From Candidatus Hodarchaeota archaeon (GTDB lineage: Archaea > Asgardarchaeota > Wukongarchaeia > Wukongarchaeales > Wukongarchaeaceae), in contig JBHLKN010000016.1 of the NCBI GenBank assembly GCA_048886645.1, forward strand, positions 5,904 to 29,903: a stretch of DNA of 24,000 nt. Reading direction: 5' to 3'. The notes beneath the pieces are model-generated. The model ran no database searches. It was given only the letters and a program-made list of their open reading frames with translations, and had not been told where the DNA came from. Positions 3,019 to 20,509 of the stretch are shown here, piece after piece. The translations under genes and the position numbers were made by a program. Numbering within the stretch: the first letter of the stretch is position 1; each line of letters begins with the position of its first letter.

Positions 3019-4179
3019 CTACAAATGAATAAGTTCACGGGGCGAATATGATAAAGGTCTACATTTTTCCCGAGTAATCACTACATTATCTTCTAATCTT
3101 ATGCCTCCAACCCCTTCTATGTAAAGCCCTGGTTCTACTGTTAACACCGAACCTGCTGGTATGGGGATTTTTGCATAAGGATCGCCTTCATTACTAAGCC
3201 TTGCTCCGACATCGTGGGTTTCTATACCAAGAGGATGTCCTAAAGCATGAATGAAAAACTTGTCAGCATCAAAACCGTGTTTTTTGAGAACTTCCCTCGC
3301 GATTTTATCTACTTCCATCCCCATTATTCCGGGTTTTAAAATTTCAATAGCCTCTTTTTTAGCGTTGTAAACCGCTTCATACATCTGCTCGAGCTTTTCA
3401 CCATCTTTTCGCCCTAGTTGGTACGTCCGCGTAATGTCTCCACAGTATCCATCCAACTTTACACCCATATCAATTAAAACTATGTCACCTTTGACTATTT
3501 TTTTCTTGCTTGTTTGATGATGGGGATAAGCGCTATTTAGACCTGAAGCAACTATTGTTTCAAAGGATGGTTCGCCCACTTTATCTATTTCGTAATTAAT
3601 CTTTGCTCCAACTTCTTTTTCAGTTACCCCCTCTTTAATGAATTCTGGCACTTTATTTTCAAATATTTCTATGGTGGCTTTTACTGCTTCTTCTATCTTT
3701 TTTATCTCTTTTGGGGTTTTTACACTTCTTAATTTTTCAAGAAAAGGAGCTGCAGACTCTAAAGAAACGTTTTCAAGAATTGTTTTCAAGCTTGTGAAAA
3801 TACCGACAGGCATCTTATCAAATCCCCCTTTCCCCTCAATAATTGAGTTTTCAACATAGTTTATAACAATTTTAGGAGTTTCACCAAGATCAGAAATCAT
3901 TTCCTTCAATTTTTCAGTAAACTTTTTCTCCCCACCATATTCTTCAACAACAAACCCTCTATCCCTCACCATTGCTCCTTCCATCCGAGTGATTAAAACC
4001 TTTACATCACCCTCTTTGGGAACAATTATCGCGTGAGTGGAATAAACACGAATGCCTAAAACAAAACGAGAATGAACATCCTCATTTTCACGAGTAACGA
4101 TTAACCAACTATCAAAACCAAACTCTTCAAGAAGACTTTGAGCCCGCTCTATTACCTCTAACTCTATATCTAACACCAA
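3019..4179 (-). CDS. M24B family Xaa-Pro aminopeptidase/prolidase
   Basis: 386 aa with pita-bread metal-ligand motifs: DMGVKLDGYCGDITRT, HALGHPLGIETHD, LTVEPGLY and GIRLEDNVVIT. A creatinase/prolidase-like N-terminal domain is present. Confidence 0.9.
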   Translation of the reverse strand: MVLDIELEVIERAQSLLEEFGFDSWLIVTRENEDVHSRFVLGIRVYSTHAIIVPKEGDVKVLITRMEGAMVRDRGFVVEEYGGEKKFTEKLKEMISDLGETPKIVINYVENSIIEGKGGFDKMPVGIFTSLKTILENVSLESAAPFLEKLRSVKTPKEIKKIEEAVKATIEIFENKVPEFIKEGVTEKEVGAKINYEIDKVGEPSFETIVASGLNSAYPHHQTSKKKIVKGDIVLIDMGVKLDGYCGDITRTYQLGRKDGEKLEQMYEAVYNAKKEAIEILKPGIMGMEVDKIAREVLKKHGFDADKFFIHALGHPLGIETHDVGARLSNEGDPYAKIPIPAGSVLTVEPGLYIEGVGGIRLEDNVVITREKCRPLSYSPRELIHL

Positions 4180-6656: not shown

Positions 6657-8039
6657 ATGGGTTTTAAAAACAAAGCGGTTTTAACAACAGTCTTATTTCT
6701 CTTCATTATGTTTTCCACATCTTTTTCTCACTCATTATCTAAAATTGAATCTAATCCCACGGAAAGGGAATCAATTTCCGATACCACGATACCTGAACCC
6801 GAAGATATTAAGGTTCTTGTAAATTTTGCTGCAAACGTATCTCAATATATTAACAAAACATCTGCAAGCATATTTTTAGATATGTTAGAAAATGAAACCG
6901 GTTTCGATCTCACAGTTTGGGAGAATGAAACTGTTTTTAGGACAAGTTTTACATCCATTGATTTGCAATTTTATGACGTTTTTATTCTCTTTGTTCACTC
7001 CAATTTGACTTTTACAGAGAATGCAATTAATGCATTGAAAGACTTTGTTAAAGAAGGTAAAACCCTTATGATATGTCATGCTCCAGAAAGTACAAACACC
7101 ACGACCAATATCAACAATGTGATCCAATATTTTGGCTTCAAATTCCTTGAAAATGTAACAGTAATAGATCCAGTAAATTTTGAGGACACAAACACCTCAA
7201 TAATAGCCCCATTCTTCTTAGATCAAATCCCTCAAACCCATGTTTTAAACCAAGAAAACGCCTTCCTAATATACCGTGGCATACCCATAATCACCAACAG
7301 TTCCTTAATAAACTCCACGAAACTTGAAGTAGTTGATCATTATAACTTAACATGGGCAAACGTTACCGCTTTTGCTGATAAAAACAATAACTCAGTAAAA
7401 GATTCAGGAGATATTAATGGAACGGATGTAGTTTTAGGCGTTTGCGCTGAAACAGAAAATCAGGGAAGATTTATAGGAATAGGCTCTGTTGCAATGTTTA
7501 ACAACACCTATACAAATGCCACTGGCAATTTTAGCGCTTATGAAAACCTGATGTTTGCCAATGAAACGATAAAATGGCTTGCAAAACTTACGGGCTTAGT
7601 ACTTTATGAGGATATGACCACAGATAAAGAGAAGATAACTTATGGGGAGCAGGTGAATGTTTCTGTAATAATCGAAGACGAAAACATGGAAGAAATCGTA
7701 GCAATAAACGCAAGCATCATAGTACACAAAATCGCCACAATGAACATAACAATGTTAAATATTAGTAGAACGGGAAAACAGTTCCACGCTGCCTATAACT
7801 CCACAACTTTTGAGGAAGCTGGAACGGTAGAATTTTCGGCAAACAGTTCAAAGGTTCGCGGATACACAAACATCACAACATATCCATGGATCATAGTAGA
7901 CGTTTTCCCAAAAGAAACTCCTCGAACATCTTTAAACTCCACCGCTTTAATACTCATAACCATGGCTACAATAGTAACCCTTGCAGGTCTTGGAGCTTAT
8001 GCCTTTAGAATAGCCCGTCTAAAAAAGCGCGAAAAATAA
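6657..8039 (+). CDS. Secreted, C-terminally membrane-anchored, heavily N-glycosylatable surface protein
   Basis: N-terminal signal-like segment AVLTTVLFLFIMFSTSFS. There are 26 N-X-S/T sequons by hand count in 460 aa. The C-terminal TM helix ALILITMATIVTLAGLGAYAF is followed by the basic tail RIARLKKREK. The segment YDVFILFVHSNLTFTENAINALKDFVKEGKTLMICHA looks like a ThuA/DUF4350-type flavodoxin-like module (weak). Confidence 0.75.
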   Translation: MGFKNKAVLTTVLFLFIMFSTSFSHSLSKIESNPTERESISDTTIPEPEDIKVLVNFAANVSQYINKTSASIFLDMLENETGFDLTVWENETVFRTSFTSIDLQFYDVFILFVHSNLTFTENAINALKDFVKEGKTLMICHAPESTNTTTNINNVIQYFGFKFLENVTVIDPVNFEDTNTSIIAPFFLDQIPQTHVLNQENAFLIYRGIPIITNSSLINSTKLEVVDHYNLTWANVTAFADKNNNSVKDSGDINGTDVVLGVCAETENQGRFIGIGSVAMFNNTYTNATGNFSAYENLMFANETIKWLAKLTGLVLYEDMTTDKEKITYGEQVNVSVIIEDENMEEIVAINASIIVHKIATMNITMLNISRTGKQFHAAYNSTTFEEAGTVEFSANSSKVRGYTNITTYPWIIVDVFPKETPRTSLNSTALILITMATIVTLAGLGAYAFRIARLKKREK

Positions 8040-8092: not shown

Positions 8093-8800
8093 TTGAAAGA
8101 CGAGATAGAAATGATTGAAAAAGAAGCTGCAAGAAACCTACAAGTAGGGAGATGGAAGGATGCCGGTTCTGCTTTTGAATATTTAATGCGCGAAAAAATG
8201 AAAATAAACGATTTTGAGGGAGCATTAGAAAGCGCTGCAAAAGCTTTGTTTTGTTGGCAAAAATTAGGGGATATAACACGCAGTGCAAAGTTGCTAGAAG
8301 AAACCGGCATAATGAGTTTTAAACGCGCTGCAGAATTTTTTGAAATTATTGCTAAAGAAGATAAACTTGTCTTTGAAAGGGCAGCAAAGTGCTATGCAGC
8401 CATAGGCGACACAACAAGGATGAAAAAGAGCCTAAAAAAAGCCGTAAAAATGTTTTCTGAGAAATCCGAATCCCTTATAGAAAACAATAAGTGCGAAGAA
8501 GCACTAAGATGGTTGGAAGGCGCTATTCGCTGTTATAAAAAACTTGGAGATAAAGAAAACACTAAAAAATCCCTCACCCATAAAGCAGAATGCCATGAAA
8601 AACTTGCAAAAGAATTCCAAAAAAAGAAGGGAGTGGAGAACGAATATTTAGCAGCAAGAGAATATGAAAACGCTGCAAAAACATACAAAAAATTAAGAAA
8701 AAGAAAAAAAACAAACGAGATGCTAGAAAAAAGCAAAAAAGCAAAAGAAAAAGCAGAAAAAGAATATCAAGGGGAATTTGACCCCCTATCAACCCTTTAA
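8093..8800 (+). CDS. TPR-like helical-repeat protein with Lys-rich C-terminal tail
   Basis: Four recurring hairpin motifs of type AAK.Y..(L/I)GD...: AAKALFCWQKLGDITRSAK, AAKCYAAIGDTTRMKK, AIRCYKKLGDKENTKK and AAKTYKKLRKRKKT. The tail is KKAKEKAEKE. Start is TTG 8093 or ATG 8111. Confidence 0.6.
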   Translation: MKDEIEMIEKEAARNLQVGRWKDAGSAFEYLMREKMKINDFEGALESAAKALFCWQKLGDITRSAKLLEETGIMSFKRAAEFFEIIAKEDKLVFERAAKCYAAIGDTTRMKKSLKKAVKMFSEKSESLIENNKCEEALRWLEGAIRCYKKLGDKENTKKSLTHKAECHEKLAKEFQKKKGVENEYLAAREYENAAKTYKKLRKRKKTNEMLEKSKKAKEKAEKEYQGEFDPLSTL

Positions 8801-8876: not shown

Positions 8877-10214
8877 ATGCATAAGCACGGGGAGAAATTA
8901 CCCCTCATCTCAGCTGGCTTTAAATATCTCCTTAAGAAATTAAATAGTGGTGAAACTTTGAGGTTCAAGAAAAGTATATTGCTTAACTGTCTGCCTTTAA
9001 CTGCTAAAAAAGAACAGATTCTCGATAGTTTTTTTATTGAATATCTCGAAGTCCTCAATAAAACCCTTAAACATTTACCGGAGGCCAAGTCTTCTACCGA
9101 ACTGCACCATCTAACATATTCAAACATACGCAAAACATCCTTCCTTCCATCTGATATTATCCAAGAAGCTCGAAAGGATGTTTGGGCTAAGAGAAAAACT
9201 GTTAAGAGCGGTTTTAAAGGATGCTCTATCAGACTTAATAAAAGGTGGTTCAGACTCTTTGAAACTTTTAGAGGTACTCCGTGTTTCAAGATCACTTATT
9301 CTCCTCGCAAAAGCTTTGTAATCCCTGTTAAGCTTGACAAAGGTTATGAGAGGTTCAAAGAGTTTCTTGAAGATAGTTGGAAAATTAAGTGCATTTCCCT
9401 CCTTAATGGTGGCAAGATTGCGGTTTGTATTGAGAAAGATTTTCCCGAACCTTCTAATAAAAAAAGAAGATATATTATTGGGATCGATATCGGTTCTTCC
9501 ACCCTTGCGGCGGTAACTGTTTTTGATTCTAACACTTATAAAGTAGCTAAACAACTTTACTTTGGAAGAGGCGTCGCTAAAAGTCAGAGGAGATACGAAG
9601 AAAGAAGGGGTAAACTTCAAAGTTATGCTGATAAAGGCTCTAAAAAAGCCAAGAAATACTTGAGAAGGATTAAAATTAAACAGAGAAACTTTGTTAAGAC
9701 AAGAAGCGGGCAGATAGCTAAGGAAATTGTTAATCTTGCCCTTGAGAATAACGCTTCTATTTCAATTGAAAAGCTTAGTATTAGGGGGAAGAAGCGTAAG
9801 TTTAACAGGAAGGCTAACAGGAAGATTAACCGCATTCCTTACGCTCAGTTCAGAGAGTTTCTTAAAAGTAACTGCATTAAACACGGTATCCCTCTTCGCG
9901 AAATTGATTCTTACCACACTTCCAAATGGTGTCCTCACTGCGGTGCAGTAAACAAAGGACGCTCATCTCCTAACTACGCTTTGTATATCTGTAAGAACTG
10001 CGGTTTGGTTGTGAATAGCGATAGAAAAGCCTCCTTGGCTATAGCTATAAAATCCCTCTTGCAGCAGACATCAAACCAAGGCTTCAAAAGACCTTCTTTT
10101 GTCCAGATTTCCAAGAGAAGAGTCCCTGTAAACGGACTCGTTCATCCAGATGATGAGGGTTTGAGTTTTGCTGTACAACATATCACCCCTCAAATGGAAA
10201 GCTCCTTCCGTTAG
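8877..10214 (+). CDS. tnpB: TnpB/OrfB RNA-guided-nuclease-type transposon protein (RuvC + zinc ribbon)
   Basis: 445 aa with RuvC-I YIIGIDIGSSTLA (D), RuvC-II ASISIEKL (E), zinc ribbon CPHCG...CKNCG and RuvC-III VVNSDRKASLAIA (D). The N-terminal half is typical of the archaeal OrfB_IS605 type. Confidence 0.9.
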   Translation: MHKHGEKLPLISAGFKYLLKKLNSGETLRFKKSILLNCLPLTAKKEQILDSFFIEYLEVLNKTLKHLPEAKSSTELHHLTYSNIRKTSFLPSDIIQEARKDVWAKRKTVKSGFKGCSIRLNKRWFRLFETFRGTPCFKITYSPRKSFVIPVKLDKGYERFKEFLEDSWKIKCISLLNGGKIAVCIEKDFPEPSNKKRRYIIGIDIGSSTLAAVTVFDSNTYKVAKQLYFGRGVAKSQRRYEERRGKLQSYADKGSKKAKKYLRRIKIKQRNFVKTRSGQIAKEIVNLALENNASISIEKLSIRGKKRKFNRKANRKINRIPYAQFREFLKSNCIKHGIPLREIDSYHTSKWCPHCGAVNKGRSSPNYALYICKNCGLVVNSDRKASLAIAIKSLLQQTSNQGFKRPSFVQISKRRVPVNGLVHPDDEGLSFAVQHITPQMESSFR

Positions 10215-10805: not shown

Positions 10806-12407
10806 TTGAGGACGAGAGATGGTCGCAATGGCGAAGTTGTTCATTGTGCTTTTTGTGGTGATGCATTTTCTATAGATCTTCTGCTTTTTTGCAGAAGTTG
10901 TGGCGCGATTATCTGTTGTAAATGCTTGAAAAGGGATTATTTCAAAGCGTTTTTCTGTAGTTATTGTTCTGCCCTCGTCCCAGAAGAGACTATTTTCTGC
11001 CCTGTTTGTAGACGTAGAAGTGAAAAAAAACAGGGAAATACCACCATCAGGATGTGTCCTAGTTGTCTTTCTAGAGATATCCATCCGGTAATCGAGGAAA
11101 GAAAATTTTTAGTTATTTCCTTCCGTGACCTAGTATTAAAGTTGAGACATGAGTTTACAAATATAGCAGACTTTGTTTCAGTCTTTAACTCTGTTATAAA
11201 TCGGGGAATTTTACTGCGTAAAAATAACTTTTTACACTATCCGATTATTGAACGGTCATTGAACGATATCCATAAAGGTTTTCCGACTTGCTTAAAAGAA
11301 CTTGAAGAAGTAACCACTTATACGGCAAGAAGCCTCGCGCAACATGTTCTCGCCTTCTCCCGACCTACCCAAATGAGTCCCCTTGATCTAAAAGCTAATT
11401 TTACAGTTCGAAAAACATTATCAGACGAAGTAGAAGTTTTTGAAAATCTAGTCTCGCGAAAATTAGGCTTTTTTTCCGATCGTTTAAAACAGGCTGAAAG
11501 ATCTGTGAAAAGGATGGAAAAAACAAAGACTGTTTTTGATAAATTATCAAGGTTCATCGAGATAATGCCAGGTGAATCGCCTGTTTACATATATCGATAT
11601 AAAAAAATTGCTAACACTCCAAGAAACATCAATCTAAAAAAAGGCAGAGGATATATTATTTTAACAGATCAACGAATAATTTTTGTGCCCCTAAAAGGGA
11701 TAAATCTCAAAACTGGAGAGAAAAGCCAGACTGATTCATCAAACTTTTACGCTTTAGATCTTGAAAAAACTCACATGATAGACGTGACAAAACACTTTTT
11801 TTCACGTAAAAAAGTGATTTTTAGGACCGAGGAAGGCGAGTACGTGTTTTTATTTTCTACAAGAGAAGTTGGTAGACTTAAAGACGCTTTCAAGTTTTCT
11901 AAGAAATATCATGATTACACTTCCAAAAATAGTTCTTTTCTCGAACAATTAGCCCGTGATAAAATAAATATAGACCCCTTCAAAAAGAGAATTGAAAAAT
12001 ACATCGATCATATTCTTTTCCCGCTTGGTTTAAGCCAAAAACAAATCTTCGGAGATATTAAAGACGATTATTACCCGTTTGATTTCGTTGATTTTTCAGA
12101 TATAACCCATTTGGAAAATAATTATCACGCGATTATCAAAGTTTTAAACAAACTGGATGAAAAATTTCAAAGAGGCGAAATAAACAGCCCCGAATATATG
12201 CGTCAAATGAATTATTATAGAAATCTTTTAGAAAGTAATTATTACGGGATTATCAAAGTGTTAAACGCTCTCCATGATAGATTTGAAAGAGGTGAAATAA
12301 ACGGCCCTGAATATATGCGGAACATCAAACATTATAATCAGCAAAAGTTTATTATTAGAAGAGAATTAGAACGTAGAAAAGCACGCTTTGGGAGTCCATT
12401 CGCATAA
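10806..12407 (+). CDS. Multidomain protein: N-terminal FYVE/PHD-spaced Cys8 zinc finger plus an extra zinc ribbon, helical linker, GRAM/GLUE-like PH domain, two SHOCT-like C-terminal repeats
   Basis: CAFCGDAFSIDLLLFCRSCGAIICCKC...CSYC has FYVE spacing (compare EEA1 [28 protein letters not shown]...CDAC) but lacks the basic RRHH motif. Further CPVC...CPSC follows. KGRGYIILTDQRIIFVP ... KKVIFRTEEGEYVFLFSTREVGRLKDAFKF fits the GRAM/PH pattern. The 40-aa repeats IIKVLNKLDEKFQRGEINSPEYMRQ and IIKVLNALHDRFERGEINGPEYMRN are SHOCT-like. TTG start. Confidence 0.8.
   Translation: MRTRDGRNGEVVHCAFCGDAFSIDLLLFCRSCGAIICCKCLKRDYFKAFFCSYCSALVPEETIFCPVCRRRSEKKQGNTTIRMCPSCLSRDIHPVIEERKFLVISFRDLVLKLRHEFTNIADFVSVFNSVINRGILLRKNNFLHYPIIERSLNDIHKGFPTCLKELEEVTTYTARSLAQHVLAFSRPTQMSPLDLKANFTVRKTLSDEVEVFENLVSRKLGFFSDRLKQAERSVKRMEKTKTVFDKLSRFIEIMPGESPVYIYRYKKIANTPRNINLKKGRGYIILTDQRIIFVPLKGINLKTGEKSQTDSSNFYALDLEKTHMIDVTKHFFSRKKVIFRTEEGEYVFLFSTREVGRLKDAFKFSKKYHDYTSKNSSFLEQLARDKINIDPFKKRIEKYIDHILFPLGLSQKQIFGDIKDDYYPFDFVDFSDITHLENNYHAIIKVLNKLDEKFQRGEINSPEYMRQMNYYRNLLESNYYGIIKVLNALHDRFERGEINGPEYMRNIKHYNQQKFIIRRELERRKARFGSPFA
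12117..12356 (+). repeat. Intragenic 120-nt (40-codon) tandem duplication encoding the two SHOCT-like modules
   Basis: NNYHAIIKVLNKLDEKFQRGEINSPEYMRQMNYYRNLLES is followed by NYYGIIKVLNALHDRFERGEINGPEYMRNIKHYNQQKFII. The similarity is also visible at the DNA level (attatcaaagt[t/g]ttaaac..., agaggcgaaataaacagccccgaatatatgcg versus agaggtgaaataaacggccctgaatatatgcg). Confidence 0.85.
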
Positions 12408-12607
12408 GAATTTAAAAGTAAAAGTTAACAAACAAGATGTTTATCGCCCTTACCCTACCCGGCTCATATAAAACTCCGCTAATAGGCATCTATAGCAATT
12501 TATTCCTTCCCTTCCCTAAATGAGCCTAGTTACAGTATTAAAATAAAAAAATGTTTTCGACTTTTATTCGGCGTTTTTGAATTTTATACTTTTTTGTTTA
12601 GGATTTT

Positions 12608-13300
12608 TTATTGGGAAGACGATTCTAATTGTTTTTTTAGAAGTTTTAGCTCCTTTTCTACTTCTGCTTCTTCTGCTTCCAGTTTTTCTTTGTCTACTAC
12701 ACGGGTTTCTTTTGGTCTTTCTACGGAGGTTCTGGATACGGGTTCAGTAGTTACTGCTTCTGCTCCCACAAGTTGCTTTTCCATAGCGGCGATCTCTGCA
12801 TCAATAGCGTCTTCTATTTCTAGCTCAAGTTCTGCTTCGGCAGAAGTAACATCAGCAAGGGCTTCATCAGCCATAGAAGCCCTTTCCATCCCCTCTTCAA
12901 GACGTACCATAAGTTCTTCTGTTACTTCCGGTCCCACTTCCCTCAAACCCTCATTTATAACTATATCTGCCTCTCTGAGAGCGCCACTAAGCTCAATATT
13001 ATCTTTCACAGTTTCGATGGTCTCTATTATACGATTCATGTTAAGGATTTTATTCTCTGTACTTTCAAGCTTCTTAAGGTAAAGCTGTCTCCTCAATAAA
13101 GATTTTTTTGCTCCCATCTTATTGCCATCACGAAGCATTTCCATAGCTAACGAACGTTGTTCATCCGCTTTACGCCTTATGGCCCTTGATTTAAGTTCAA
13201 AACGATTTATAACAGCCCTAAGCTTAGCTATGGTTTCTGATGGTTTTCTTCTTTTATCCCCAAAGAGAAAATTCTTAATGCCCATTATCAAAATCTCCAT
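12608..13300 (-). CDS. ESCRT-III protein, Snf7 family (Vps20/32/60 = CHMP4-7-like)
   Basis: The N-terminus MGIKNFLFGDKRRKPSETIAKLR resembles CHMP6/Snf7 N-termini. A basic helical hairpin (RKADEQRSLAMEMLRDGNKMGAKKSLLRRQLYLKKLE) is followed by an acidic C-terminal half and the terminal amphipathic helix EKELKLLKKQLE. ATG at 13300 or 13285. Confidence 0.85.
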   Translation of the reverse strand: MEILIMGIKNFLFGDKRRKPSETIAKLRAVINRFELKSRAIRRKADEQRSLAMEMLRDGNKMGAKKSLLRRQLYLKKLESTENKILNMNRIIETIETVKDNIELSGALREADIVINEGLREVGPEVTEELMVRLEEGMERASMADEALADVTSAEAELELEIEDAIDAEIAAMEKQLVGAEAVTTEPVSRTSVERPKETRVVDKEKLEAEEAEVEKELKLLKKQLESSSQ

Positions 13301-13417: not shown

Positions 13418-16141
13418 TTATGTTCTTCCTTCAATTACTCTTTTTAATTCAGAAACAACAGAAAGATTCGGAGGACTTATCGTAAATACAATTTCAAGAC
13501 CATCCTCTAAAAGAGCAAAAATAATCCCAAGTTTCATCCCTCCTCTGTCAAAAATAACCGTAGGAAACTTCTCATCTTCCTGGATCTTTACTATTTTCCA
13601 CTCAACGTCCCTAATGCGTGAAATAACAATAGAGGCACTATTTGACCCTGTTAAACCTAATTTTATCGAGGAAACCTCGTAAGGTAGAATCCTACCGTCC
13701 TTGCTTTTTGCCACGGCGTCGGTAAAATGGGGATACAAAAGTTTACGTTTTAAAAAATCTTTAAGGAGACTTTTCGGCACATCACTCGGAGATATAATTG
13801 AAATCCCTCTCATAACATCAGTCTCATCCTCCACCATAACCTTTACTTCACTAGGAGGAGTAGGAGCTTCAACATCAATATCGACCATACCCTCTTCCTC
13901 TAGAACTTCGGAAACAAGTTCCAGAACCTCTTCAATGGGGGATGGTTCGGGTTTTTCCTCCATCTTCGGCCTGGCTTCTCTCCCAGCATGCATAGAAGAC
14001 CTAGCCCTTATCGCTACAACAATCGCCCTATCCGACTCTTTATCAGAAACTATGGCGACTCCTACCGGGAGTCTTCTTACAAAATCCGCGCTTTTTAACT
14101 CATCAGGTATAGGGGAAGGCGCACGTTTTATATACGCTTTCACATCATCTTCATAGGTTAAAGTGTGCACAATCATTAAATCCGCTTGGGATAATACCCT
14201 TGGATCTGTTGCACTTGGTTGTTGAGTACAAACTAACAAGGCGCAACCTGGTTTCCGTCCTTGTTTCGCATATTCAACTATGGGTATGCTTGCTGCTGTT
14301 TCCTTTCTTGAAGGTACAAGAAGGTGTGCTTCATCTATCGCAAGCCAAGTAAAAGGTATTTCCTCCCTTCTCATCTCTTGGACTTCTTTCCCCACCTCTA
14401 CTAACATTTCTTCTGTTTCCTCATACCTTGCAGCTTTTGTCCTCTCTCTAAGGATTTTACGCGCTAGTATACCCACAAAAAGTGCACGCAAACCCTCCCC
14501 TAACCTCGGATGGCTGACATCAATAACCGTTACCTGATTTGGAACGCTCAACTCTGTTAAAGGCGTGCCCACTTCAGCAAAAACCCCCCACTTTTTCGCA
14601 GAATTAAGCCTTGCAACCGCCGCTCTCTGCGTAGTTCTTGAAAATCCTACAGTCTTTGACGATATATCAACATCCCTTTCAATACACCTTGTTAAGTCAT
14701 CAATAGTGAAGTTTTCCTTCCCTTCAACCGCTACTTGTTCGCCTTCTTCAAATTCAGCTATATAGCCTTTCTTCGCTTTATCTATAGCTTGAGCTATAAG
14801 CAGTCCTTGGGGTCCAAACCTATCAATCCCAAAAGAGTGGCACCAATCATCAACTGAAAGCTCAGAAGCAGATATTGAAAACCTAGCGTCCCAACTTTCA
14901 GGGGGAAAATCAGAAGCAAGCTCTATCGGCACATACACCTTAGTATTCGGGTAACCCTTGGGTCTCATACCCCACTTTTCAAGGATCTCGATCTCTTTCT
15001 TCTCAACATTGCAATGTTTCATAGAATAAAAAACGCCTAGAGGATCAATTACTATGATTCCTATACCCAGATTCGATCGCGCTAACTCTTCAGCCAAAAC
15101 CCCCATCGTATAACTCTTACCACTACCCCTATGACCGCAAATAAAAACAACGTACGGAAAACCAGCGTTAATAACAACAGACTTTCCATAAATCTCTTCC
15201 ATCTCCCCGACATCGCTTGTTTTCATACCCTTTTCTGCAACCCTCCCTATGAAAAGGGCTCCTTTACATCCTACACCTTTCTTTACTTTAAACTTTTTAC
15301 CTAAAACCACTGCATCTTTTAACGGCGTATACCTCGGCTTTGAAGGAGCTTTTACGAGATACTTCCTTTCCTCAAGCAGTTTCGACCAATAACTATCCAA
15401 TCCTTCGCTAACCAGAAGCTCCCCTTCTACCGCTCCAAAACCCCACCTTAACCACTCAACTTCCTCCTTCCCTTCCATTCTTTTCGCTATCTCGTTCCTT
15501 GAAACAATCTCTGCGGGATAAAATTTCGGATCACAACCACTAACGTCCCATAAAATAATGTCTAACTTCACGTTTAAATCTTTAAAAGCTCCCTCATTAT
15601 CGCCCTTATTAAGCGAAGCGAGCGAACTATAAGCTTTTTCTAAAAGATCTTTCTCCTGGGTTACAATATAGAGGGCGCATAGACCCCTAACCTTATTTTC
15701 CCCTTCTAATCCTTCAGTGATTTTCTGGGCTATAGCCAAATCTTCTTCTTTTTCTGTTAAAAGATAGGAAAAAGATAAACCCATAACTGCTGGCCAATCC
15801 TTTCCTTCTTTACGGAAAAACTCTGAAGCGTTTTCAAAAATTTCTTTTTGAACCTCCACAACTTCCCTTGCATAAAATAAAGCTCTTAAAGAATGGGCGG
15901 AAAAAAGCTCTAAATCATCCCCTTCTTCTGTAAAGAAGCTTCCATCTGCTTCCTGCCGTGTTAAAAGCCCAAATACTACCTCTTGCATTCTTGCTTTAAT
16001 CCATTCCTCTCCAGTAACTTTGTAAGCATGAAATAACGCTTCAAAAAAAGAAGGACGAACCCTCTCTTCCACTCGATCCAATCTCTCTAAACTCTCAGTG
16101 AGGGGTGGAAGTATCTGACATAAAGGCCTTCCTATCTCCAA
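13418..16141 (-). CDS. 907-aa HerA/FtsK-superfamily (COG0433/DUF87-like) P-loop ATPase with novel N- and C-terminal domains
   Basis: Walker A FICGHRGSGKSYTMG (about 15113-15136) and Walker B FTWLAIDEAHLLVP. HerA-type distal motifs are KQGRKPGCALLVCTQQPSATDPRVLSQADLMIVHTL and RARSSMHAG. The N-terminal ~290 aa are helical repeats (one QEADGSFF terpenoid-cyclase/prenyltransferase-like turn). An acidic linker precedes a ~130-aa alpha/beta C-terminal domain. TTG start (uncertain). Confidence 0.85.
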   Translation of the reverse strand: MEIGRPLCQILPPLTESLERLDRVEERVRPSFFEALFHAYKVTGEEWIKARMQEVVFGLLTRQEADGSFFTEEGDDLELFSAHSLRALFYAREVVEVQKEIFENASEFFRKEGKDWPAVMGLSFSYLLTEKEEDLAIAQKITEGLEGENKVRGLCALYIVTQEKDLLEKAYSSLASLNKGDNEGAFKDLNVKLDIILWDVSGCDPKFYPAEIVSRNEIAKRMEGKEEVEWLRWGFGAVEGELLVSEGLDSYWSKLLEERKYLVKAPSKPRYTPLKDAVVLGKKFKVKKGVGCKGALFIGRVAEKGMKTSDVGEMEEIYGKSVVINAGFPYVVFICGHRGSGKSYTMGVLAEELARSNLGIGIIVIDPLGVFYSMKHCNVEKKEIEILEKWGMRPKGYPNTKVYVPIELASDFPPESWDARFSISASELSVDDWCHSFGIDRFGPQGLLIAQAIDKAKKGYIAEFEEGEQVAVEGKENFTIDDLTRCIERDVDISSKTVGFSRTTQRAAVARLNSAKKWGVFAEVGTPLTELSVPNQVTVIDVSHPRLGEGLRALFVGILARKILRERTKAARYEETEEMLVEVGKEVQEMRREEIPFTWLAIDEAHLLVPSRKETAASIPIVEYAKQGRKPGCALLVCTQQPSATDPRVLSQADLMIVHTLTYEDDVKAYIKRAPSPIPDELKSADFVRRLPVGVAIVSDKESDRAIVVAIRARSSMHAGREARPKMEEKPEPSPIEEVLELVSEVLEEEGMVDIDVEAPTPPSEVKVMVEDETDVMRGISIISPSDVPKSLLKDFLKRKLLYPHFTDAVAKSKDGRILPYEVSSIKLGLTGSNSASIVISRIRDVEWKIVKIQEDEKFPTVIFDRGGMKLGIIFALLEDGLEIVFTISPPNLSVVSELKRVIEGRT

Positions 16142-16251: not shown

Positions 16252-16872
16252 TCAACTCTCCTCTTCGCGTAAACGTTCTAATTCTTCCTTAATCTCTTTC
16301 TCCCTTGCTGATGGGGTAGGAAGACCGTGTTCTGTAGTTACGCTTACAACCGCCCCTGCTTCCCCAAGAATTCTTGTAACTTCTGCATCGTCAATATCCG
16401 CACTTAAAGCTCCTTCAAGTTCCACATCAATAGCTTCTGTTGAAACTTCAATACCAGTAAGACCTTCTTCTAAAGCATCTATATATCTACTTAGTTGGGG
16501 AAGTCTAAGCGAACGGTTAAGTTGCCTAAGAGATATAGCCAAACCCTTCATATCTTTTGCAAGACTCTGAACAGCCTCCGTATGCTCCATCTTAGCAATA
16601 ATTCCCTTAAGCCTAGAATTCAACCTCGCACAACCCAAAGCAAAACGCCTACTCCTTACAACGTCTTGAGCATAGACTTTCGCAGCCTCCATGTCCCCCT
16701 GTTCTACAGACCTCCTAACCTCTTTCATCATCTTATTCTCGTCCTTCTTCAACTTCATGCGTTGCCTTTCAATCCTACGTTCTATCAACCTAAGGCGAAT
16801 AATCCAATCACGAGTACTACGACCACCCATCAACCAATTAACAAACTTACCGAAAACCAATGAAATCACCAA
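16252..16872 (-). CDS. ESCRT-III protein, Vps2/24/46 (CHMP1-3-like) family
   Basis: IERRIERQRMKLKKDENKMMKEVRRSVEQGDMEAAKVYAQDVVRSRRFALGCARLNSRLKGI matches the CHMP2/Vps2 alpha1-alpha2 hairpin pattern. The C-terminal half is acidic and ends in EIKEELERLREEES (MIM1-like). Hydrophobic N-terminus SLVFGKFVNWL. Start is TTG 16872, GTG 16869 or ATG 16830. Confidence 0.85.
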   Translation of the reverse strand: MVISLVFGKFVNWLMGGRSTRDWIIRLRLIERRIERQRMKLKKDENKMMKEVRRSVEQGDMEAAKVYAQDVVRSRRFALGCARLNSRLKGIIAKMEHTEAVQSLAKDMKGLAISLRQLNRSLRLPQLSRYIDALEEGLTGIEVSTEAIDVELEGALSADIDDAEVTRILGEAGAVVSVTTEHGLPTPSAREKEIKEELERLREEES

Positions 16873-16942: not shown

Positions 16943-17641
16943 TCATATTTTTAAAGCTTTTATAATCTCTGAGGGAAAACCTTTTTGCGTAATCTTTTCA
17001 AAGTTAACAATCTTGAAACCTACATACTCCACAAAGGGTTTTACTTGAACTGAACGACAACCACCTATTGTGTGAGGGAAAAACCGGTATAAAAGGGACC
17101 AAAAAGCGTTGAAGATAGGATTTCCACAAGTCATGTTCACTAAAACCATGCGCCCTCCTTTTCTCATAACCCGATTAAACTCTCGTAAAATAGGGAAAAA
17201 ATCCTTTACAGGGATTAAATCAAGCATATAGCTATTAATAACAACATCAAAAGCTTCATCTGTAAAAGGAAGACTACGAGCATCTGCCATCAAAAACTCA
17301 TAACTCTCCCTTGCAGCATCCTTCACTCTTTTCTTAGACATTCTAAGCATTTTACCCGAAATATCAACTCCTACATTCAATCCTTCTTCATTCATTTTCA
17401 AAATTTCAGAAAAATTCTTACCAGTGCCACAAGCCACTTCCAAAACCTTTTCCCTCCCTTTAATTTCAACTAAAGAGAGAGCCCTACTATGAGCCTTTGA
17501 TTCCGCAAACCGGCTCCAAAAATCGTAATGAGGCGCAAGGATATCGTAAGTCCGGGCAACCTCTTTTTTTGAAACTTTTGCTTTAAGCATATAAGACACC
17601 TCTTTTAACACAATATCTATATTCGTAATATGATGATTCAT
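16943..17641 (-). CDS. Class I SAM-dependent methyltransferase (UbiE/Methyltransf_11-like)
   Basis: Motif I VLEVACGTGKN, post-I GVDISGKML and motif II/III FDVVINSYML ... GGRMVLVN. The gene is co-oriented with and immediately upstream of the ESCRT-III / ATPase / ESCRT-III string. Confidence 0.82.
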   Translation of the reverse strand: MNHHITNIDIVLKEVSYMLKAKVSKKEVARTYDILAPHYDFWSRFAESKAHSRALSLVEIKGREKVLEVACGTGKNFSEILKMNEEGLNVGVDISGKMLRMSKKRVKDAARESYEFLMADARSLPFTDEAFDVVINSYMLDLIPVKDFFPILREFNRVMRKGGRMVLVNMTCGNPIFNAFWSLLYRFFPHTIGGCRSVQVKPFVEYVGFKIVNFEKITQKGFPSEIIKALKI

Positions 17642-17713: not shown

Positions 17714-18880
17714 GTGATAGCAATGTCAAAAGGTCGTCAGAAAGAGCTTTCAGCCATGCAGGAGCTTCATCAATATGTCATTTCTTATGCTAAGAAAGCT
17801 ATTGAGCACGAGAAGAAAGGTCAGAAAAAAGCGGCTTTAGACAACTATATTAAAGCTGTGGAAATTCTTAATAAGATGATTAGGTGGGCTCCAACGCCTG
17901 AGCAAAAAGAGGCTTACTATAAAAAAGCTAAGACATATCTTTCTAGGGCTTGGGAGATTAGAAAGGAGCTGAAAGCGCCTAGAGGAGAGATAAGTGCGGA
18001 AAAAGGAGAGTTAAGTGCTGCTATTCAAGATGCTATAATCACGGAAAGGCCTACGATAAAGTGGGATGATGTTGCTGATTTAGAGTCTGCTAAGCAAGCT
18101 TTAAGAGAGGCGATAATCCTCCCGTTATTACGCCCTGATCTATTTAAAGGGGCTCGTAAACCTTGGAAGGGCGTCTTATTATTTGGACCACCGGGTTGCG
18201 GTAAAACCCTCTTAGCTAAGGCGGTTGCTTCCGAATGTGATGCCACTTTTTTTAATGTTAGTGCCGCTACTTTAGTTTCAAAGTGGTTAGGGGAGTCTGA
18301 GAAGCTTGTAAGGGAACTTTTCAAGTTTTCAAGAGAAAAACAGCCTTCAATAGTTTTCTTTGACGAAGTTGATGCTATAGCTACTACGAGGGGAGGGACA
18401 GAACACGATGCCATTAGGCGGGTGAAACTTCAATTAATGCAAGAAATGCAAGGGTTGATGTCTGATAGCGAGCAGATGGTCGTAATTGGGACGACTAATA
18501 TTCCCTGGCATATTGATCCTGCCTTTAGGCGTAGGTTTGAAAGGCGGATTCTAGTTCCCCTTCCTGGAAAGGAGGCAAGGGAACAGATTTTCAAGATTCA
18601 TACCAGGGATGTAGAATTGGATGAAAGCGTAGACTTTAGCCTTCTTTCAGAGATAACTGAAGGGTTTTCTGGGGCAGATATTGAAATAGTTTGCCGAGAA
18701 GCGATTATGAATCCTGTAAGAGAAATGGATAAAAGCGGTCTATTGAAGGATAAAGAAGCAAAAATAAGACCTGTTACAATTGGAGATTTCGAAAAAGCTC
18801 TTCAAAAAATAAAACCCACAGTAGCCCCAGAAGAACTCCTTGCCTACGAAGAATGGCAACAAGAATTTGGAAGCGTTTGA
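17714..18880 (+). CDS. vps4: Vps4-type AAA+ ATPase (N-terminal MIT domain + single AAA cassette)
   Basis: MIT-like three-helix region AKKAIEHEKKGQKKAALDNYIKAVEILNKMI...YYKKAKTYLSRAWEIRKEL. Walker A GPPGCGKT, Walker B IVFFDEVD and SRH/arginine fingers TNIPWHIDPAFRRRFERRI. The likely start is ATG 17723 (the track ORF begins at GTG 17714). Confidence 0.94.
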   Translation: MIAMSKGRQKELSAMQELHQYVISYAKKAIEHEKKGQKKAALDNYIKAVEILNKMIRWAPTPEQKEAYYKKAKTYLSRAWEIRKELKAPRGEISAEKGELSAAIQDAIITERPTIKWDDVADLESAKQALREAIILPLLRPDLFKGARKPWKGVLLFGPPGCGKTLLAKAVASECDATFFNVSAATLVSKWLGESEKLVRELFKFSREKQPSIVFFDEVDAIATTRGGTEHDAIRRVKLQLMQEMQGLMSDSEQMVVIGTTNIPWHIDPAFRRRFERRILVPLPGKEAREQIFKIHTRDVELDESVDFSLLSEITEGFSGADIEIVCREAIMNPVREMDKSGLLKDKEAKIRPVTIGDFEKALQKIKPTVAPEELLAYEEWQQEFGSV

Positions 18881-18883
18881 ATT

Positions 18884-19618
18884 TTGAGAAAGAGAAAAAC
18901 AGGAATATTGAAAAAGTGGCATGAAATAGCTGAAAAATTTGCAAAGGAAACAGATGTCCAATTAGAAGATCGCATTATTTTTTCATGGGATAATTTCAAA
19001 GAAAGGATTCTTTCTTTGAAAAATCGTTTGGGGTTTAGTGGTGAAACTTTAGACTTTTTGGGCTATTCGGTTGATCTAAACACTGGGGGCGTAGTTGACC
19101 GTTTACTTGACTATACCTTGGATAAAAATCCTTTTGTCAGTTATCTGGCTTATTATTCTGAATCTTTTGAGACTGTTTTGGATGAGGATAGGTGGATTAA
19201 GTTCCGGCATTTGCCTGGCGGTGTATCGTTTGAAAATGCTTTTAGGGTTCAGGTTGAGGGATGGATTTTAAACCGTTTTTTAGAAGATGATGAAGACATT
19301 TTGAGAGATGAGAAGATAGCAGAAAAGGCTTTAGTTTTAATCGGGGCTAAGCGTGAGAAGTTTGGCGATTTTTCCTTTTCTATTAACACCTTGCCCCGTG
19401 TAACGCTTGCCGTTGTTTATAATGAAGGTGTTGAAGAGTTTGAGCCAAATGTTTCGGTTTTTTTTAAAGAATCTGCTCAATATTACCAGCCTACCGAGCT
19501 TCTAGCTCACCATGGAGTACTGCCTATGGTTGCTTTTGAACGGGCTAGAAGAGCGGTTTTAGGCTTTGAAGAAAGCGGTTTGCCGCAGTTTATTAGTAAA
19601 TATTTACGGTTTGATTAA
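18884..19618 (+). CDS. Uncharacterised protein, DUF3786-like by motif pattern; starts 4 nt after the vps4 stop
   Basis: 244 aa with a TTG start 4 nt after the vps4 stop codon. WIKFRHLPGGVSFENAF and FGDFSFSINTLPRVTLAVVYNEGVEEFEPNVSVFFKESAQYYQPTELLA recall the DUF3786 pattern (..W.GDEEF....lFD.sa..yl.tEdl), recalled from memory. The basic N-terminal helix is MRKRKTGILKKWHEIAEKFAK. Confidence 0.6.
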   Translation: MRKRKTGILKKWHEIAEKFAKETDVQLEDRIIFSWDNFKERILSLKNRLGFSGETLDFLGYSVDLNTGGVVDRLLDYTLDKNPFVSYLAYYSESFETVLDEDRWIKFRHLPGGVSFENAFRVQVEGWILNRFLEDDEDILRDEKIAEKALVLIGAKREKFGDFSFSINTLPRVTLAVVYNEGVEEFEPNVSVFFKESAQYYQPTELLAHHGVLPMVAFERARRAVLGFEESGLPQFISKYLRFD

Positions 19619-19750: not shown

Positions 19751-20509
19751 ATGGAAAGAGTGGAGGAAAAGGATGAGAAGGTTAAAAAGAAAGAAGAGGA
19801 TGTTGAGGAGGAAGAAGAAGAAGAGCTTGGAGAACTTGATGAATTGTTAAGTGAACTGGAAGTTGAGCTTGAGAGTTTAGAAAGCGTTGAAGCCCCTTCT
19901 ATTGAGGAGGAAGTTGTTGAGGAAATTGTCGTAGTGGAGCGTCCTCCTGTTGTAGAGGAAAAGGAAAGGGAGGAAAGGCGTGTTTCTGAGGCTATTAAAG
20001 AGATATTGCCTCCTTGGATTGATAAGCCTTGGATGTATATAAAGCCTGAAAAAGCCGATCATTTAGAGAGTTGGTTGAATGATTGGGGGGATTTTTTGGT
20101 TGATTTGTGTCGGGTGATGGTTAAGCATGTAGTTAATTTAATGCATTTGAGGTCTAGGTTTCCGTTTAAAAATCCAATTTGTAAGAAAAATCTTACTCTT
20201 AATCATATGCAGGATGTTGGGGAGTATTTGGTGTCTAGTGAGAGGGCTGCTTGGTGGGATTCGGGGAGGCTAAGGTTGCGGGTTTATTGGATGGCTCTTG
20301 AGGAGTGGGCGGAGGAAATCTTTCAGTGGGCTTTTGAGCGTGGTGAAACAGTGGTCACGTTTTTTGATCTTGTTAACGCAGGGGAACGTTGGAGTTCATT
20401 GCCTCCAAGAGATTTGAAAGCTGTTTGTGAGATTTTAGTAAAAAAAGGACAAGCTCGCTGGCTTGATGATAAGAAGAAGTCGTTAGAGTTTAGGTTTTTC
20501 GATGTATAA
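19751..20509 (+). CDS. vps25: ESCRT-II subunit Vps25 (EAP20) homolog with ~80-aa polyacidic N-terminal extension
   Basis: FKNPICKKNLTLNHMQDVGEYLVSSERAAWWDSGRLRLRVYWMALEEWAEEIFQWAFERGETVVTFFDLVNAGE...LKAVCEILVKKGQARWLDDKKKSLEFRFF aligns with human VPS25. The human sequence is FNNVKLQRKLPVESIQIVLEELRKKGNLEWLDKSKSSFLIMWRRPEEWGKLIYQWVSRSGQNNSVFTLYELTNGE...LRALQALQQEHKAEII..GRGVKFF. LPPWIDKPWMY sits where the eukaryotic PPxF/Y motifs lie. Confidence 0.85.
   Translation: MERVEEKDEKVKKKEEDVEEEEEEELGELDELLSELEVELESLESVEAPSIEEEVVEEIVVVERPPVVEEKEREERRVSEAIKEILPPWIDKPWMYIKPEKADHLESWLNDWGDFLVDLCRVMVKHVVNLMHLRSRFPFKNPICKKNLTLNHMQDVGEYLVSSERAAWWDSGRLRLRVYWMALEEWAEEIFQWAFERGETVVTFFDLVNAGERWSSLPPRDLKAVCEILVKKGQARWLDDKKKSLEFRFFDV

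Follow-up and report, generated by a model that had tools for sequence, protein, structure and literature searches.

Why is a gene for a large ATPase of the HerA/FtsK type located between the two ESCRT-III genes of an Asgard archaeon, and does the arrangement reflect a working relationship or only the history of one genome? This question arose from a 24,000-nucleotide stretch of a Candidatus Hodarchaeota archaeon contig (the window), for which an initial annotation, made from sequence alone, described a giant HerA/FtsK-superfamily ATPase between two ESCRT-III paralogues and suggested a DNA or polymer translocase coupled to ESCRT-III constriction (for example, chromosome clearance at abscission) or a second ESCRT-III remodelling ATPase alongside Vps4. 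We first asked whether the described gene exists, and found that the observation was correct. The relevant features of the window are as follows:

13418..16141 (-), the 907-aa HerA-clade ATPase gene (whole ORF including stop)
15362..16141 (-), N-terminal all-helical domain (aa 1-260), family-specific and alpha/alpha-toroid-like in the predicted model
15137..15361 (-), beta-rich segment (aa 261-335) preceding the P-loop, possibly a HAS-barrel remnant
14000..15136 (-), RecA-like P-loop motor core (aa 336-714), with Walker A at 15113-15136, Walker B at 14324-14341 and GRKPG/TQQPS at about 14213-14260
13787..13999 (-), disordered acidic/proline-rich linker (aa 715-785)
13421..13786 (-), C-terminal alpha/beta domain (aa 786-907) with predicted beta-alpha-beta4-alpha topology, tentatively TBP/helix-grip-like
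16252..16872 (-), ESCRT-IIIA (Vps2/24/46, CHMP1-3-like) gene, the upstream neighbour
12608..13300 (-), ESCRT-IIIB (Vps20/32/60, CHMP4-7-like) gene, the downstream neighbour
17714..18880 (+), Vps4 (MIT + AAA + Vps4_C), on the opposite strand and facing away from the ESCRT-III/ATPase gene string
19751..20509 (+), ESCRT-II Vps25-like winged-helix protein
10806..12407 (+), 533-aa Zn-ribbon protein with steadiness-box-like C-terminal repeats (ESCRT-I-like), conserved next to ESCRT-IIIB
16943..17641 (-), UbiE-like SAM methyltransferase, immediately upstream of ESCRT-IIIA

The ORF was present in the ORF list, and NCBI annotates the 99%-identical orthologue with the same length. The motifs were located as initially annotated, with Walker A GHRGSGKS at aa 336, Walker B AIDEAH at 601, QGRKPG at 627 and TQQPS at 639, and all of these residues were invariant in an alignment of 20 sequences with about 35-40% identity to the window protein. 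Both flanking genes belong to the Snf7 family (Pfam, 5e-13 for the upstream and 5.4e-12 for the downstream gene); the best PDB sequence matches of the upstream gene were CHMP2A (4e-14) and CHMP1B, indicating an A-type subunit, whereas that of the downstream gene was Heimdallarchaeota AB_125 ESCRT-IIIB (1.1e-28), indicating a B-type subunit. Vps4 was identified with Pfam, as was the Vps25-like protein (ESCRT-II, 2.6e-17). The annotated spacers of 110 and 117 nt were exact with the ORF-list starts, although the spacer to ESCRT-IIIB becomes 132 nt with the NCBI start call for that gene. One correction was needed: the spacers are AT-rich with TATA-like elements and short T-runs, and co-transcription in this genome is therefore not assured.

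We next examined the identity of the ATPase. The Pfam DUF87/HerA central domain (PF01935) matched aa 334-561 with 48.5 bits (1.6e-12) against a cutoff of 23.2, a profile search against PDB returned T. kodakarensis HerA at 6.5e-12, and the motifs aligned to the same motifs of T. kodakarensis HerA, with the residue-level alignment to 9x1l covering Walker B, GRK-G and the QxPS sensor. Although the AF2 model of the core is of only moderate confidence (pLDDT 64), its top 41 Foldseek PDB hits were all HerA chains, the best being HerA hexamers (E down to 2.6e-9, probability 1.00), with 12-16% identity to HerA structures. These results place the protein in the HerA clade of the FtsK-HerA superfamily. 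In the AF2 models, helices spanned residues 7-258, and a separate model of this N-domain displayed 13 helices (pLDDT 81.6, pTM 0.82). The segment at 261-335 displayed six short strands, but at a pLDDT of about 50, and it is basic (pI 9.7), with no hit to the HAS-barrel family PF09378. The linker had a pLDDT below 50, a pI of 4.14 (19 D+E against 6 K+R) and a variable length and sequence in the alignment. The C-domain, by contrast, was modelled with a pLDDT of about 80 and is conserved in the clade; tblastn matches to the loci L020 and L096-98 (loci are designated L followed by a number) extended to window residue 870-889, although phmmer coverage for these stopped near 750. Neither terminal domain had a Pfam hit.

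The protein nevertheless differs from the canonical HerA of the HerA-NurA DNA end-resection helicase (PDB 4D2I, 9X1L/9X1M, 7WRW). It is 907 aa rather than about 500-600 aa, it carries the additional N-terminal (260 aa) and C-terminal (120 aa) domains, it has no HAS-barrel recognisable by sequence, and it scored only 37.9 and 37.1 bits against the NCBIfam HerA equivalog cut-offs of 800 and 970. As the initial annotation had stated for the adjacent genes, no NurA, Mre11 or Rad50 gene was found, either in the window or in any of the roughly 20 related loci with Pfam-annotated neighbours.

We also considered whether the gene could encode a defence or mobile-element ATPase, such as a component of Sir2-HerA (Nezha), DUF4297-HerA or MADS (Mad8) systems, or of a conjugative or viral DNA-packaging apparatus, that happens to be integrated at this site. 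PADLOC returned mad8 (1.5e-15) and several defence HerA models, NCBIfam gave weak antiphage-HerA, VirB4 and CedD hits, PHROGs gave an unknown-function family and a terminase large subunit family, anti-phage HerA assemblies were among the top structural hits, and a TnpB element lies 3 kb away at 8877-10214. However, all of the PADLOC, NCBIfam and PHROGs hits covered only the generic C-terminal half of the motor and scored far below the family cut-offs (for example, 33 bits against 800), indicating no clustering with such ATPases beyond generic superfamily similarity. In addition, no Sir2, DUF4297 or other effector, nuclease, methylase, integrase or capsid gene was present in any of the roughly 20 loci, the TnpB element was absent from syntenic relatives, and the phylogeny was lineage-structured and co-diverged with ESCRT-III (see below), unlike defence islands. 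We therefore consider this explanation very unlikely.

To test whether the linkage is unique to this genome, which had been named in advance as a finding that would refute the proposal, we examined the loci of homologous ATPases. Every locus with a full-length homologue (phmmer score 455 or more) displayed Snf7, ATPase and Snf7 on one strand wherever the contig allowed, in the order ESCRT-IIIA, ATPase, ESCRT-IIIB. These comprised 26 loci in two scans, about 20 of them non-redundant, plus L172, whereas about 145 lower-scoring family loci had no adjacent Snf7. The 20 non-redundant full-length relatives (34-42% identity) came from Jord-/Freyarchaeia, Helarchaeales-type, Heimdall-labelled and Hod/Wukong-labelled Asgard MAGs, and the Snf7-flanked ATPases formed one clade with 100% bootstrap support. 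The ATPase pairwise distances correlated with those of ESCRT-IIIA (r = 0.80) and ESCRT-IIIB (r = 0.94; Mantel p <= 5e-4), and the mean pairwise identity of the ATPases was 44%, comparable to that of ESCRT-IIIB (43%). The proposal was thus not refuted by this test.

These loci also bear on the possibility that the ATPase is a functionally unrelated passenger, namely a DNA-repair or housekeeping HerA paralogue inserted once between the two ESCRT-III genes in an early Asgard and retained by synteny inertia. In favour of this view, the wider family (stand-alone 437-aa proteins in DPANN archaea, Thorarchaeota paralogues and others) showed no ESCRT-III gene in its neighbourhood and often sits near DNA-metabolism genes such as an XPD-like helicase, a Toprim protein and MazG; DPANN archaea are stated in a review to lack ESCRT-III altogether (PMC7619361). 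The window spacers could hold independent promoters, and many ESCRT-bearing Asgards do without the gene: the two ESCRT-III genes are adjacent with no ATPase in Heimdall LC_3 and Baldrarchaeia, and the Lokiarchaeia Vps4 locus examined showed neither the ATPase nor ESCRT-III genes. The component is therefore not general to Asgard ESCRT systems and is not essential to ESCRT-III function. However, the three-gene order survives in lineages whose ATPases share only about 34-42% identity and whose surrounding genes have been completely reshuffled. In the window, Hel_GB_B (L019), L015 and L172, the triad sits next to Vps4/Vps25/EAP30/Vps28, with the same divergent Vps4 layout in all of the latter three, whereas in Jord/Frey it sits away from Vps4, next to TauE and an RNA methyltransferase. 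The intergenic gaps in Jord/Frey are only 5-50 nt, implying co-transcription, and the clade gained its unique terminal domains exactly at the node where the linkage appears. Moreover, a sister-group member (L020) lies in a separate ESCRT locus, in a MAG labelled Bathyarchaeota, with Vps4, Snf7, an ESCRT-II winged-helix protein, a Zn-ribbon protein and a Ser/Thr kinase. We therefore regard the passenger explanation as unlikely.

We then asked whether the protein contains a module that could connect it to ESCRT-III. No known ESCRT-III-binding module was found, and the window protein had no MIT, winged-helix or steadiness-box Pfam hit. The N-domain looked like an alpha/alpha toroid rather than a MIT domain, the best Foldseek PDB hits being the thioester domains of C5/C3d/alpha-2-macroglobulin and GH127/GH76, although only at marginal significance (E 3e-3 to 7e-2, TMq 0.5-0.59). 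A Q-x-x-D-G-x-F/W motif was visible in the alignment. The N-domain profile found only 14 representatives among 1.84 billion proteins, of which 13 were same-family proteins (full-length or fragments) and the 14th was a marginal hit (E 9.8e-4), and we read the domain as a clade-specific adaptor rather than a generic module. Unlike Vps4/CdvC, the canonical ESCRT ATPase, which is also encoded beside ESCRT-III genes, the protein has a RecA-like FtsK-HerA rather than an AAA+ fold and lacks MIT and Vps4_C domains, although both would be ring NTPases expected to thread a polymer; a bona fide Vps4 is encoded 1.6 kb away in the window.

Evidence for DNA as the substrate is only indirect. HerA and FtsK are established dsDNA translocases, and 5 of 10 close non-clade relatives scanned carried a TrmB/TFIIE/MarR-type winged helix after the motor (also seen in the relatives P0025 and P0027), which parallels the motor plus gamma winged helix of FtsK. 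However, the ESCRT-linked clade itself has lost this winged helix, so its DNA link is second-hand, and FtsK-HerA superfamily ATPases can also serve protein secretion (EccC appeared among the weak structural hits). FtsK/SpoIIIE belongs to the same superfamily of pumping ATPases, and we propose a functional analogy with it, given the genomic coupling to a division/scission machinery and the motor plus C-terminal winged helix of close relatives. The window protein, however, had no FtsK_SpoIIIE hit (PF01580), its predicted C-domain is not a winged helix, it has no N-terminal membrane domain (the maximum 19-residue hydropathy, 1.68, falls inside a predicted beta-sheet), and its putative partner machinery is ESCRT-III, not FtsZ.

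Taken together, we tentatively propose that the gene encodes a HerA-clade ring ATPase (presumably hexameric), with catalytic competence inferred from its intact motifs, which in a subset of Asgard archaea is a dedicated accessory component of the ESCRT-III module, inherited with ESCRT-IIIA and ESCRT-IIIB and probably expressed with them. In this view, the motor core would use ATP to thread a linear polymer, most likely double-stranded DNA, through its central pore, and the toroid-like N-domain and the TBP-like C-domain, tethered by the flexible acidic linker, would dock the motor onto the ESCRT-III/ESCRT-I assembly at a constricting membrane neck. DNA would then be cleared from the neck before scission, as FtsK does at the bacterial septum, or alternatively be driven through the neck into a bud or vesicle. 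Our analysis demonstrates the anatomy, the intact motifs, the clade-wide gene linkage, the co-divergence with ESCRT-III and the absence of nuclease or defence partners, whereas the ring assembly, DNA as substrate and the docking to ESCRT-III are inferred. The initial interpretation was thus supported in part: the superfamily assignment, the unrecognised terminal domains and the lack of a NurA/Mre11/Rad50 partner held, while DNA clearance at abscission and a second ESCRT-III remodeller remain inference. Asgard ESCRT-III is not known to act in division, and the cited literature favours vesicle or protein sorting (PMC11804906, PMC10936438).

Alternatively, the ring ATPase could act on ESCRT-III filaments or ESCRT cargo rather than on nucleic acid, as a second assembly/disassembly or loading factor alongside Vps4, or as a hexameric platform that organises ESCRT-IIIA/B. 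The same linkage evidence applies, the position exactly between the A-type and B-type subunits suggests co-assembly with both, and solved Sir2-HerA and DUF4297-HerA complexes show HerA working as an effector scaffold with non-nuclease partners in defence. In addition, the clade replaced the winged helix of its relatives with a TBP-like domain, whose assignment rests on one marginal Foldseek hit to the TBP-fold protein Flpp3 (6PNY; E 6e-3, TMt 0.58, 102 columns, the aligned query region not being displayed), the only non-ATPase structural hit. The same Flpp3/TBP fold is reported for adaptin appendages and for arCOG08177 proteins (inactivated Cas2 + DUF3568) of euryarchaeal ESCRT loci (Makarova et al. 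2024, PMC10936438), but there was no sequence similarity to DUF3568 (no Pfam hit at E <= 5), and homology is not established. The Jord/Frey versions carry a C-terminal tail whose motif resembles the steadiness-box-like end of the neighbouring ESCRT-I-like protein, although this similarity was not significant (hhalign probability 18.6%). Moreover, no HerA-clade ATPase is known to thread proteins, and Vps4 is present in the same genomes and loci, so the disassembly role is already filled. We consider this alternative possible but unlikely.

Asgard ESCRT systems are currently described as ESCRT-I, ESCRT-II, two ESCRT-III subunits, Vps4 and ubiquitin enzymes, and we found no description of the present component in the ESCRT literature searched. 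A second, unrelated motor ATPase fixed between the two ESCRT-III genes in several deep Asgard lineages means that the machinery has an unstudied component there, and in vitro reconstitutions that use only ESCRT-IIIA, ESCRT-IIIB and Vps4 may miss part of the biology in those lineages. The 2004 proposal that HerA-type pumps are the archaeal counterparts of FtsK in coupling DNA handling to cell division has lacked a genomic or physical link to a division or scission apparatus, and the triad provides one. It would be the first DNA translocase built into an ESCRT machinery if the protein either clears chromosomal DNA before scission or actively loads DNA into ESCRT-generated buds or vesicles, a possibility that is doubtful on present evidence but not excluded. 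The finding also bears on whether Asgard ESCRT-III is used for division, vesicle formation or DNA-containing vesicles.

Two further neighbours recur around the triad. The 533-aa Zn-ribbon protein gave a sub-threshold Vps23_core hit (5.6e-5), and 8 of 9 C-terminal segments (from 8 proteins) hit Vps23_core weakly; the family recurs in 9 triad loci, and a similar-sized unannotated ORF occupies the same position in L172. The UbiE-like methyltransferase, identified with Pfam, is syntenic in the window relatives, and a related methyltransferase lies about 7 kb away in the Hel loci.

The window carries a typical Asgard ESCRT neighbourhood, in which the genes of interest are arranged as follows, those on the minus strand being given in the direction of transcription:

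16943-17641, minus strand: a UbiE-like methyltransferase
16252-16872, minus strand: a Snf7-family gene (ESCRT-IIIA)
13418-16141, minus strand: the 907-aa ORF encoding the HerA-type ATPase
12608-13300, minus strand: a second Snf7-family gene (ESCRT-IIIB)
17714-18880, plus strand, divergent from these: Vps4 with MIT, AAA and Vps4_C domains
18884-19618, plus strand: a DUF3786 protein (1.9e-19)
19751-20509, plus strand: a Vps25-like ESCRT-II protein
plus strand: a family-B DNA polymerase
10806-12407, plus strand, convergent with ESCRT-IIIB: a 533-aa Zn-ribbon protein with weak Vps23-core-like C-terminal repeats

Sequence searches against solved structures were used to type the two flanking genes: the upstream Snf7 gene is A-type (CHMP2A, 4e-14; CHMP1B), whereas the downstream one is B-type (Heimdallarchaeota AB_125 ESCRT-IIIB, 1e-28), indicating that the gene order is ESCRT-IIIA, ATPase, ESCRT-IIIB. 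Cluster members 90-99% identical to the ATPase are labelled Hodarchaeota or Wukongarchaeota in NCBI and come from estuarine sediment metagenomes.

The observation made in the initial annotation, that a large HerA-type ATPase lies between two ESCRT-III genes, was confirmed. All of the motifs that it had listed are present, at aa 336 (GHRGSGKS), 601 (AIDEAH), 627 (QGRKPG) and 639 (TQQPS), and the Pfam DUF87/HerA central domain scored above threshold (48.5 against 23.2 bits). A profile of 20 homologues found HerA of Thermococcus kodakarensis, Sulfolobus HerA and defence-system HerAs as the only PDB relatives, with a residue-level alignment covering Walker B, the GRK-G arginine region and the QxPS sensor. 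The top 41 Foldseek hits of the AF2 model (pLDDT 64) in PDB were HerA chains. The predicted anatomy comprises an all-helical N-domain at aa 7-258 (separate model pLDDT 81.6, pTM 0.82), a basic beta-rich segment at 261-335, which may be a HAS-barrel remnant (low confidence), the motor core at 336-714, a disordered acidic linker at 715-785 (pI 4.1) and a C-domain at 786-907 with beta-alpha-beta4-alpha topology. No transmembrane-grade segment was found in the protein. The spacers to the flanking genes are 110 and 117 nt, as had been noted; however, they are AT-rich with TATA-like elements, so an operon is not proven in this genome. Long antisense ORFs overlap the ATPase and both ESCRT-III genes (13701-14156, 14280-14537, 12594-13082 and 16495-16863, all on the plus strand), but their Ser/Thr-rich, low-complexity translations look like by-products of the strongly skewed coding strand (GC skew -0.2 to -0.4), not genes.

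To determine whether the linkage is conserved, we searched 5.8 billion proteins, which returned about 23 full-length clusters (890-1020 aa, 35-42% identity), those with a source name being labelled Jordarchaeia, Helarchaeota, Hodarchaeota or Promethearchaeota, as well as core-only relatives. Loci were collected by exact protein look-up, from one genome per GTDB species and from JGI metagenomes, and an iterative Snf7 search (jackhmmer) over all ORFs of the 171 loci plus the window gave a clean split. Every locus whose ATPase scored 455 bits or more against the window protein has Snf7 genes immediately upstream and downstream on the same strand; these are 26 loci, about 20 of them non-redundant, and in three of them one side is cut off by a contig end. 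In contrast, none of the roughly 145 lower-scoring relatives has an adjacent Snf7, and no Snf7 was found next to the DPANN, Thor, Micr/Undin, Hadarchaeia or Altiarchaeota relatives, apart from one at 2.5 kb in L020, a locus of a MAG labelled Bathyarchaeota. This conserved linkage is the key result of the analysis.

We also looked for other Asgard ESCRT loci. A word-indexed search with ESCRT-IIIB as the probe returned only close relatives, and Vps4 was therefore used instead. Walking out from a Heimdall-labelled Vps4 gave a further example (L172), with Snf7, DUF87 (888 aa) and Snf7 divergent from Vps4 and ESCRT-II. However, Heimdall LC_3 has EAP30, Snf7, Snf7, Vps4 and ESCRT-II with nothing between the two ESCRT-III genes, a Baldrarchaeia locus likewise lacks the ATPase, and a Lokiarchaeia Vps4 locus has neither the ATPase nor ESCRT-III genes. 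In L172, Heimdall LC_3 and the Baldrarchaeia locus, Vps4 is followed directly by ESCRT-II, whereas in the window lineage the DUF3786 protein is inserted between Vps4 and the Vps25-like gene.

The wider context of the triad differs between lineages. In Hel_GB_B (L019) and in a second locus, L015, the triad sits in the full cluster: both have Vps4 divergent from ESCRT-IIIA, ATPase and ESCRT-IIIB, to which L019 adds Vps28, EAP30 and Vps25, and L015 a UEV/Vps23-like protein. In Jord-/Freyarchaeia the triad has moved away from Vps4, yet it remains intact, with gaps as small as 5 nt. These loci hold an additional 346-355-aa ORF between the ATPase and ESCRT-IIIB (L004 3944-4984; L009 9023-10090; L094 7058-8098), for which no Pfam family was found, only a weak Rep3_C winged-helix hit. 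A conserved 440-533-aa protein also lies next to ESCRT-IIIB (window 10806-12407, plus strand; L001 11906-13360; L004 5810-7318; L012 9700-11175), with N-terminal CxxC Zn-ribbons and a PH/GRAM-like 'YIILTDQRIIFVP' segment; its C-terminal 'ELWxRGEIxxEEY' helices gave sub-threshold Vps23_core, CdvA and SHOCT hits, and it is probably an ESCRT-I-like adaptor. The Jord/Frey ATPases (proteins P0004-P0009 and P0011, last ~50 aa; L004 ~3770-3925) have a C-terminal extension ending in 'YLRSLHEYYELGRMTEDEYIFLKRK', a motif that by eye resembles the C-terminus of this neighbouring protein. Although both sets share weak GvpG-model hits, the similarity is not significant (hhalign probability 18.6%) and no Vps23_core or SHOCT hit was found, so a steadiness-box tail was retained only as a lead.

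A neighbour-joining tree of the motor core (400 columns, Kimura distances, 100 bootstraps) placed all 20 Snf7-flanked proteins in one clade with 100% support. The weakly resolved sister group holds Asgard and other archaeal proteins of 625-1190 aa, and the next group consists of Micr-/Undin-/Diapherotrites/Hadarchaeia/Altiarchaeota proteins; the 437-aa DPANN proteins and Thorarchaeota paralogues are more distant, and HAS-barrel HerA-like proteins form the outgroup. Pairwise distances of the ATPases correlate with those of the flanking ESCRT-IIIA (r = 0.80) and ESCRT-IIIB (r = 0.94; Mantel p <= 5e-4), and the ATPase is as conserved as ESCRT-IIIB (44% against 43% mean identity), indicating that the three genes have been inherited as a block under comparable constraint. 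One sister-group member, the 770-aa HerA-like ATPase of L020 (DAOVFL010000017.1, 1574-9500), lies in a different, compact ESCRT locus, in which Vps4 is divergent from Snf7, a 196-aa ORF, an ESCRT-II-type winged-helix protein and a Zn-ribbon protein, followed by the ATPase and a Zn-ribbon Ser/Thr kinase. This is a second association with ESCRT, in a different gene arrangement.

The evidence from the wider family bears on whether the ATPase could be an unrelated passenger gene. A stand-alone protein of about 437 aa consisting only of this motor core is very widespread in DPANN archaea (Woese-, Nano- and Parvarchaeota; loci L034-L088 and L105-L171), where its recurrent neighbours are an XPD-like helicase, a SurA-like PPIase, a Toprim protein, MazG and a Trp/Tyr-tRNA synthetase, and where no NurA and no ESCRT genes were seen. 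We nevertheless consider a passenger origin of the ESCRT-flanked gene improbable. A viral or defence identity was rejected, as PHROGs, PADLOC and BFVD gave only generic motor-domain similarity, and a defence or mobile-element role is regarded as very unlikely. A TnpB/IS605 OrfB-like gene is present at 8877-10214 on the plus strand (Cas12f1-like_TNB 6.7e-15, OrfB_IS605 5.9e-8), but no gene of this size or family is listed in the 90%-identical syntenic contigs L090 and L091, indicating that it is probably a recent insertion.

We next examined the accessory domains. The N-domain profile found only 14 representatives among 1.84 billion proteins, of which thirteen are full-length family members or fragments of them and the last is a marginal hit (E 9.8e-4), indicating that the domain is exclusive to this clade. 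Its confident model matched alpha/alpha-toroid domains, including the thioester domains of C5, C3d and alpha-2-macroglobulin as well as GH127 and GH76, at marginal E-values (3e-3 to 7e-2) and TMq 0.5-0.59, and a Q-x-x-D-G-x-F/W motif in the alignment fits that fold class. As no MIT Pfam hit was found and the model matched neither MIT nor TPR, a MIT-like N-domain was rejected. The only non-ATPase structural hit of the C-domain was Flpp3 (6PNY), a TBP/helix-grip fold (E 6e-3, TMt 0.58), and the predicted topology of the C-domain fits one TBP repeat. Makarova et al. 2024 (PMC10936438) report the same template for the DUF3568 domain of arCOG08177 proteins in euryarchaeal ESCRT loci and note its relation to adaptin appendage domains; however, we treat this only as a lead, because there is no sequence support and the aligned region was not displayed. 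Five of ten close relatives outside the clade, in Micr-/Diapherotrites- and Thermococci-labelled MAGs and in metagenome contigs (L104, L022, L007, L110 and L024), carry a TrmB/TFIIE-alpha/MarR-type winged helix in a C-terminal domain of ~60-70 aa after the motor. This layout, in an uncharacterised archaeal HerA-like family, parallels the FtsK motor plus gamma domain and points to DNA as the ancestral substrate.

Taken together, the sequence data establish an intact, strongly conserved HerA-type motor that is embedded clade-wide between the two ESCRT-III genes, that has co-diverged with them and that has no nuclease or defence partner, together with clade-specific terminal domains that appear at the same node as the linkage. 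Ring assembly, polymer threading, DNA as the substrate and docking to ESCRT-III/ESCRT-I through the terminal domains are, by contrast, inferences. The interpretation in the initial annotation, that the protein could be a translocase coupled to ESCRT-III constriction or a second remodelling ATPase, was thus only partly supported. We consider a real functional partnership with ESCRT-III likely, and within that we favour DNA translocation at the constricting neck, which would serve either clearance before scission or loading into buds; the alternative, a protein-directed remodeller or scaffold, is possible but less likely.

By the tests available, the protein is a member of the HerA clade of the FtsK-HerA superfamily. 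It is not a canonical HerA, as it has no NurA partner, scores far below the equivalog cut-offs and has only an unconfirmed HAS-barrel, and it is not FtsK/SpoIIIE, not Vps4 and, by context, not a defence HerA. The finding is real, non-trivial and generalisable: it is a lineage-specific form of the Asgard ESCRT system that includes a HerA-type motor with unique, putative adaptor domains. No HerA-, FtsK- or DUF87-type gene in Asgard ESCRT loci was mentioned in the comprehensive ESCRT survey (PMC10936438), in the synteny study of Hatano et al., which plots Hel_GB_B but colours only Ub/ESCRT genes (PMC9192718), in the structural papers on Asgard ESCRT-IIIA/B (PMC11804906, PMC7619361) or in the 2020 asCOG preprint, and full-text searches on ESCRT-III together with DUF87, HerA or FtsK in Asgard archaea likewise found no description of this gene, although the literature covered was incomplete and prior mention elsewhere cannot be excluded.

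Two further genes on the plus strand of the window were noted beyond the ESCRT cluster. The gene at 8093-8800 encodes a TPR protein with a weak SNAP (soluble NSF attachment protein) hit (8e-4), and that at 6657-8039 an OST48_N-like protein (1.4e-12). An IFT52_GIFT-family protein, a faint hit to which was also seen on the OST48-like gene of the window, lies near the triad in Hel loci.
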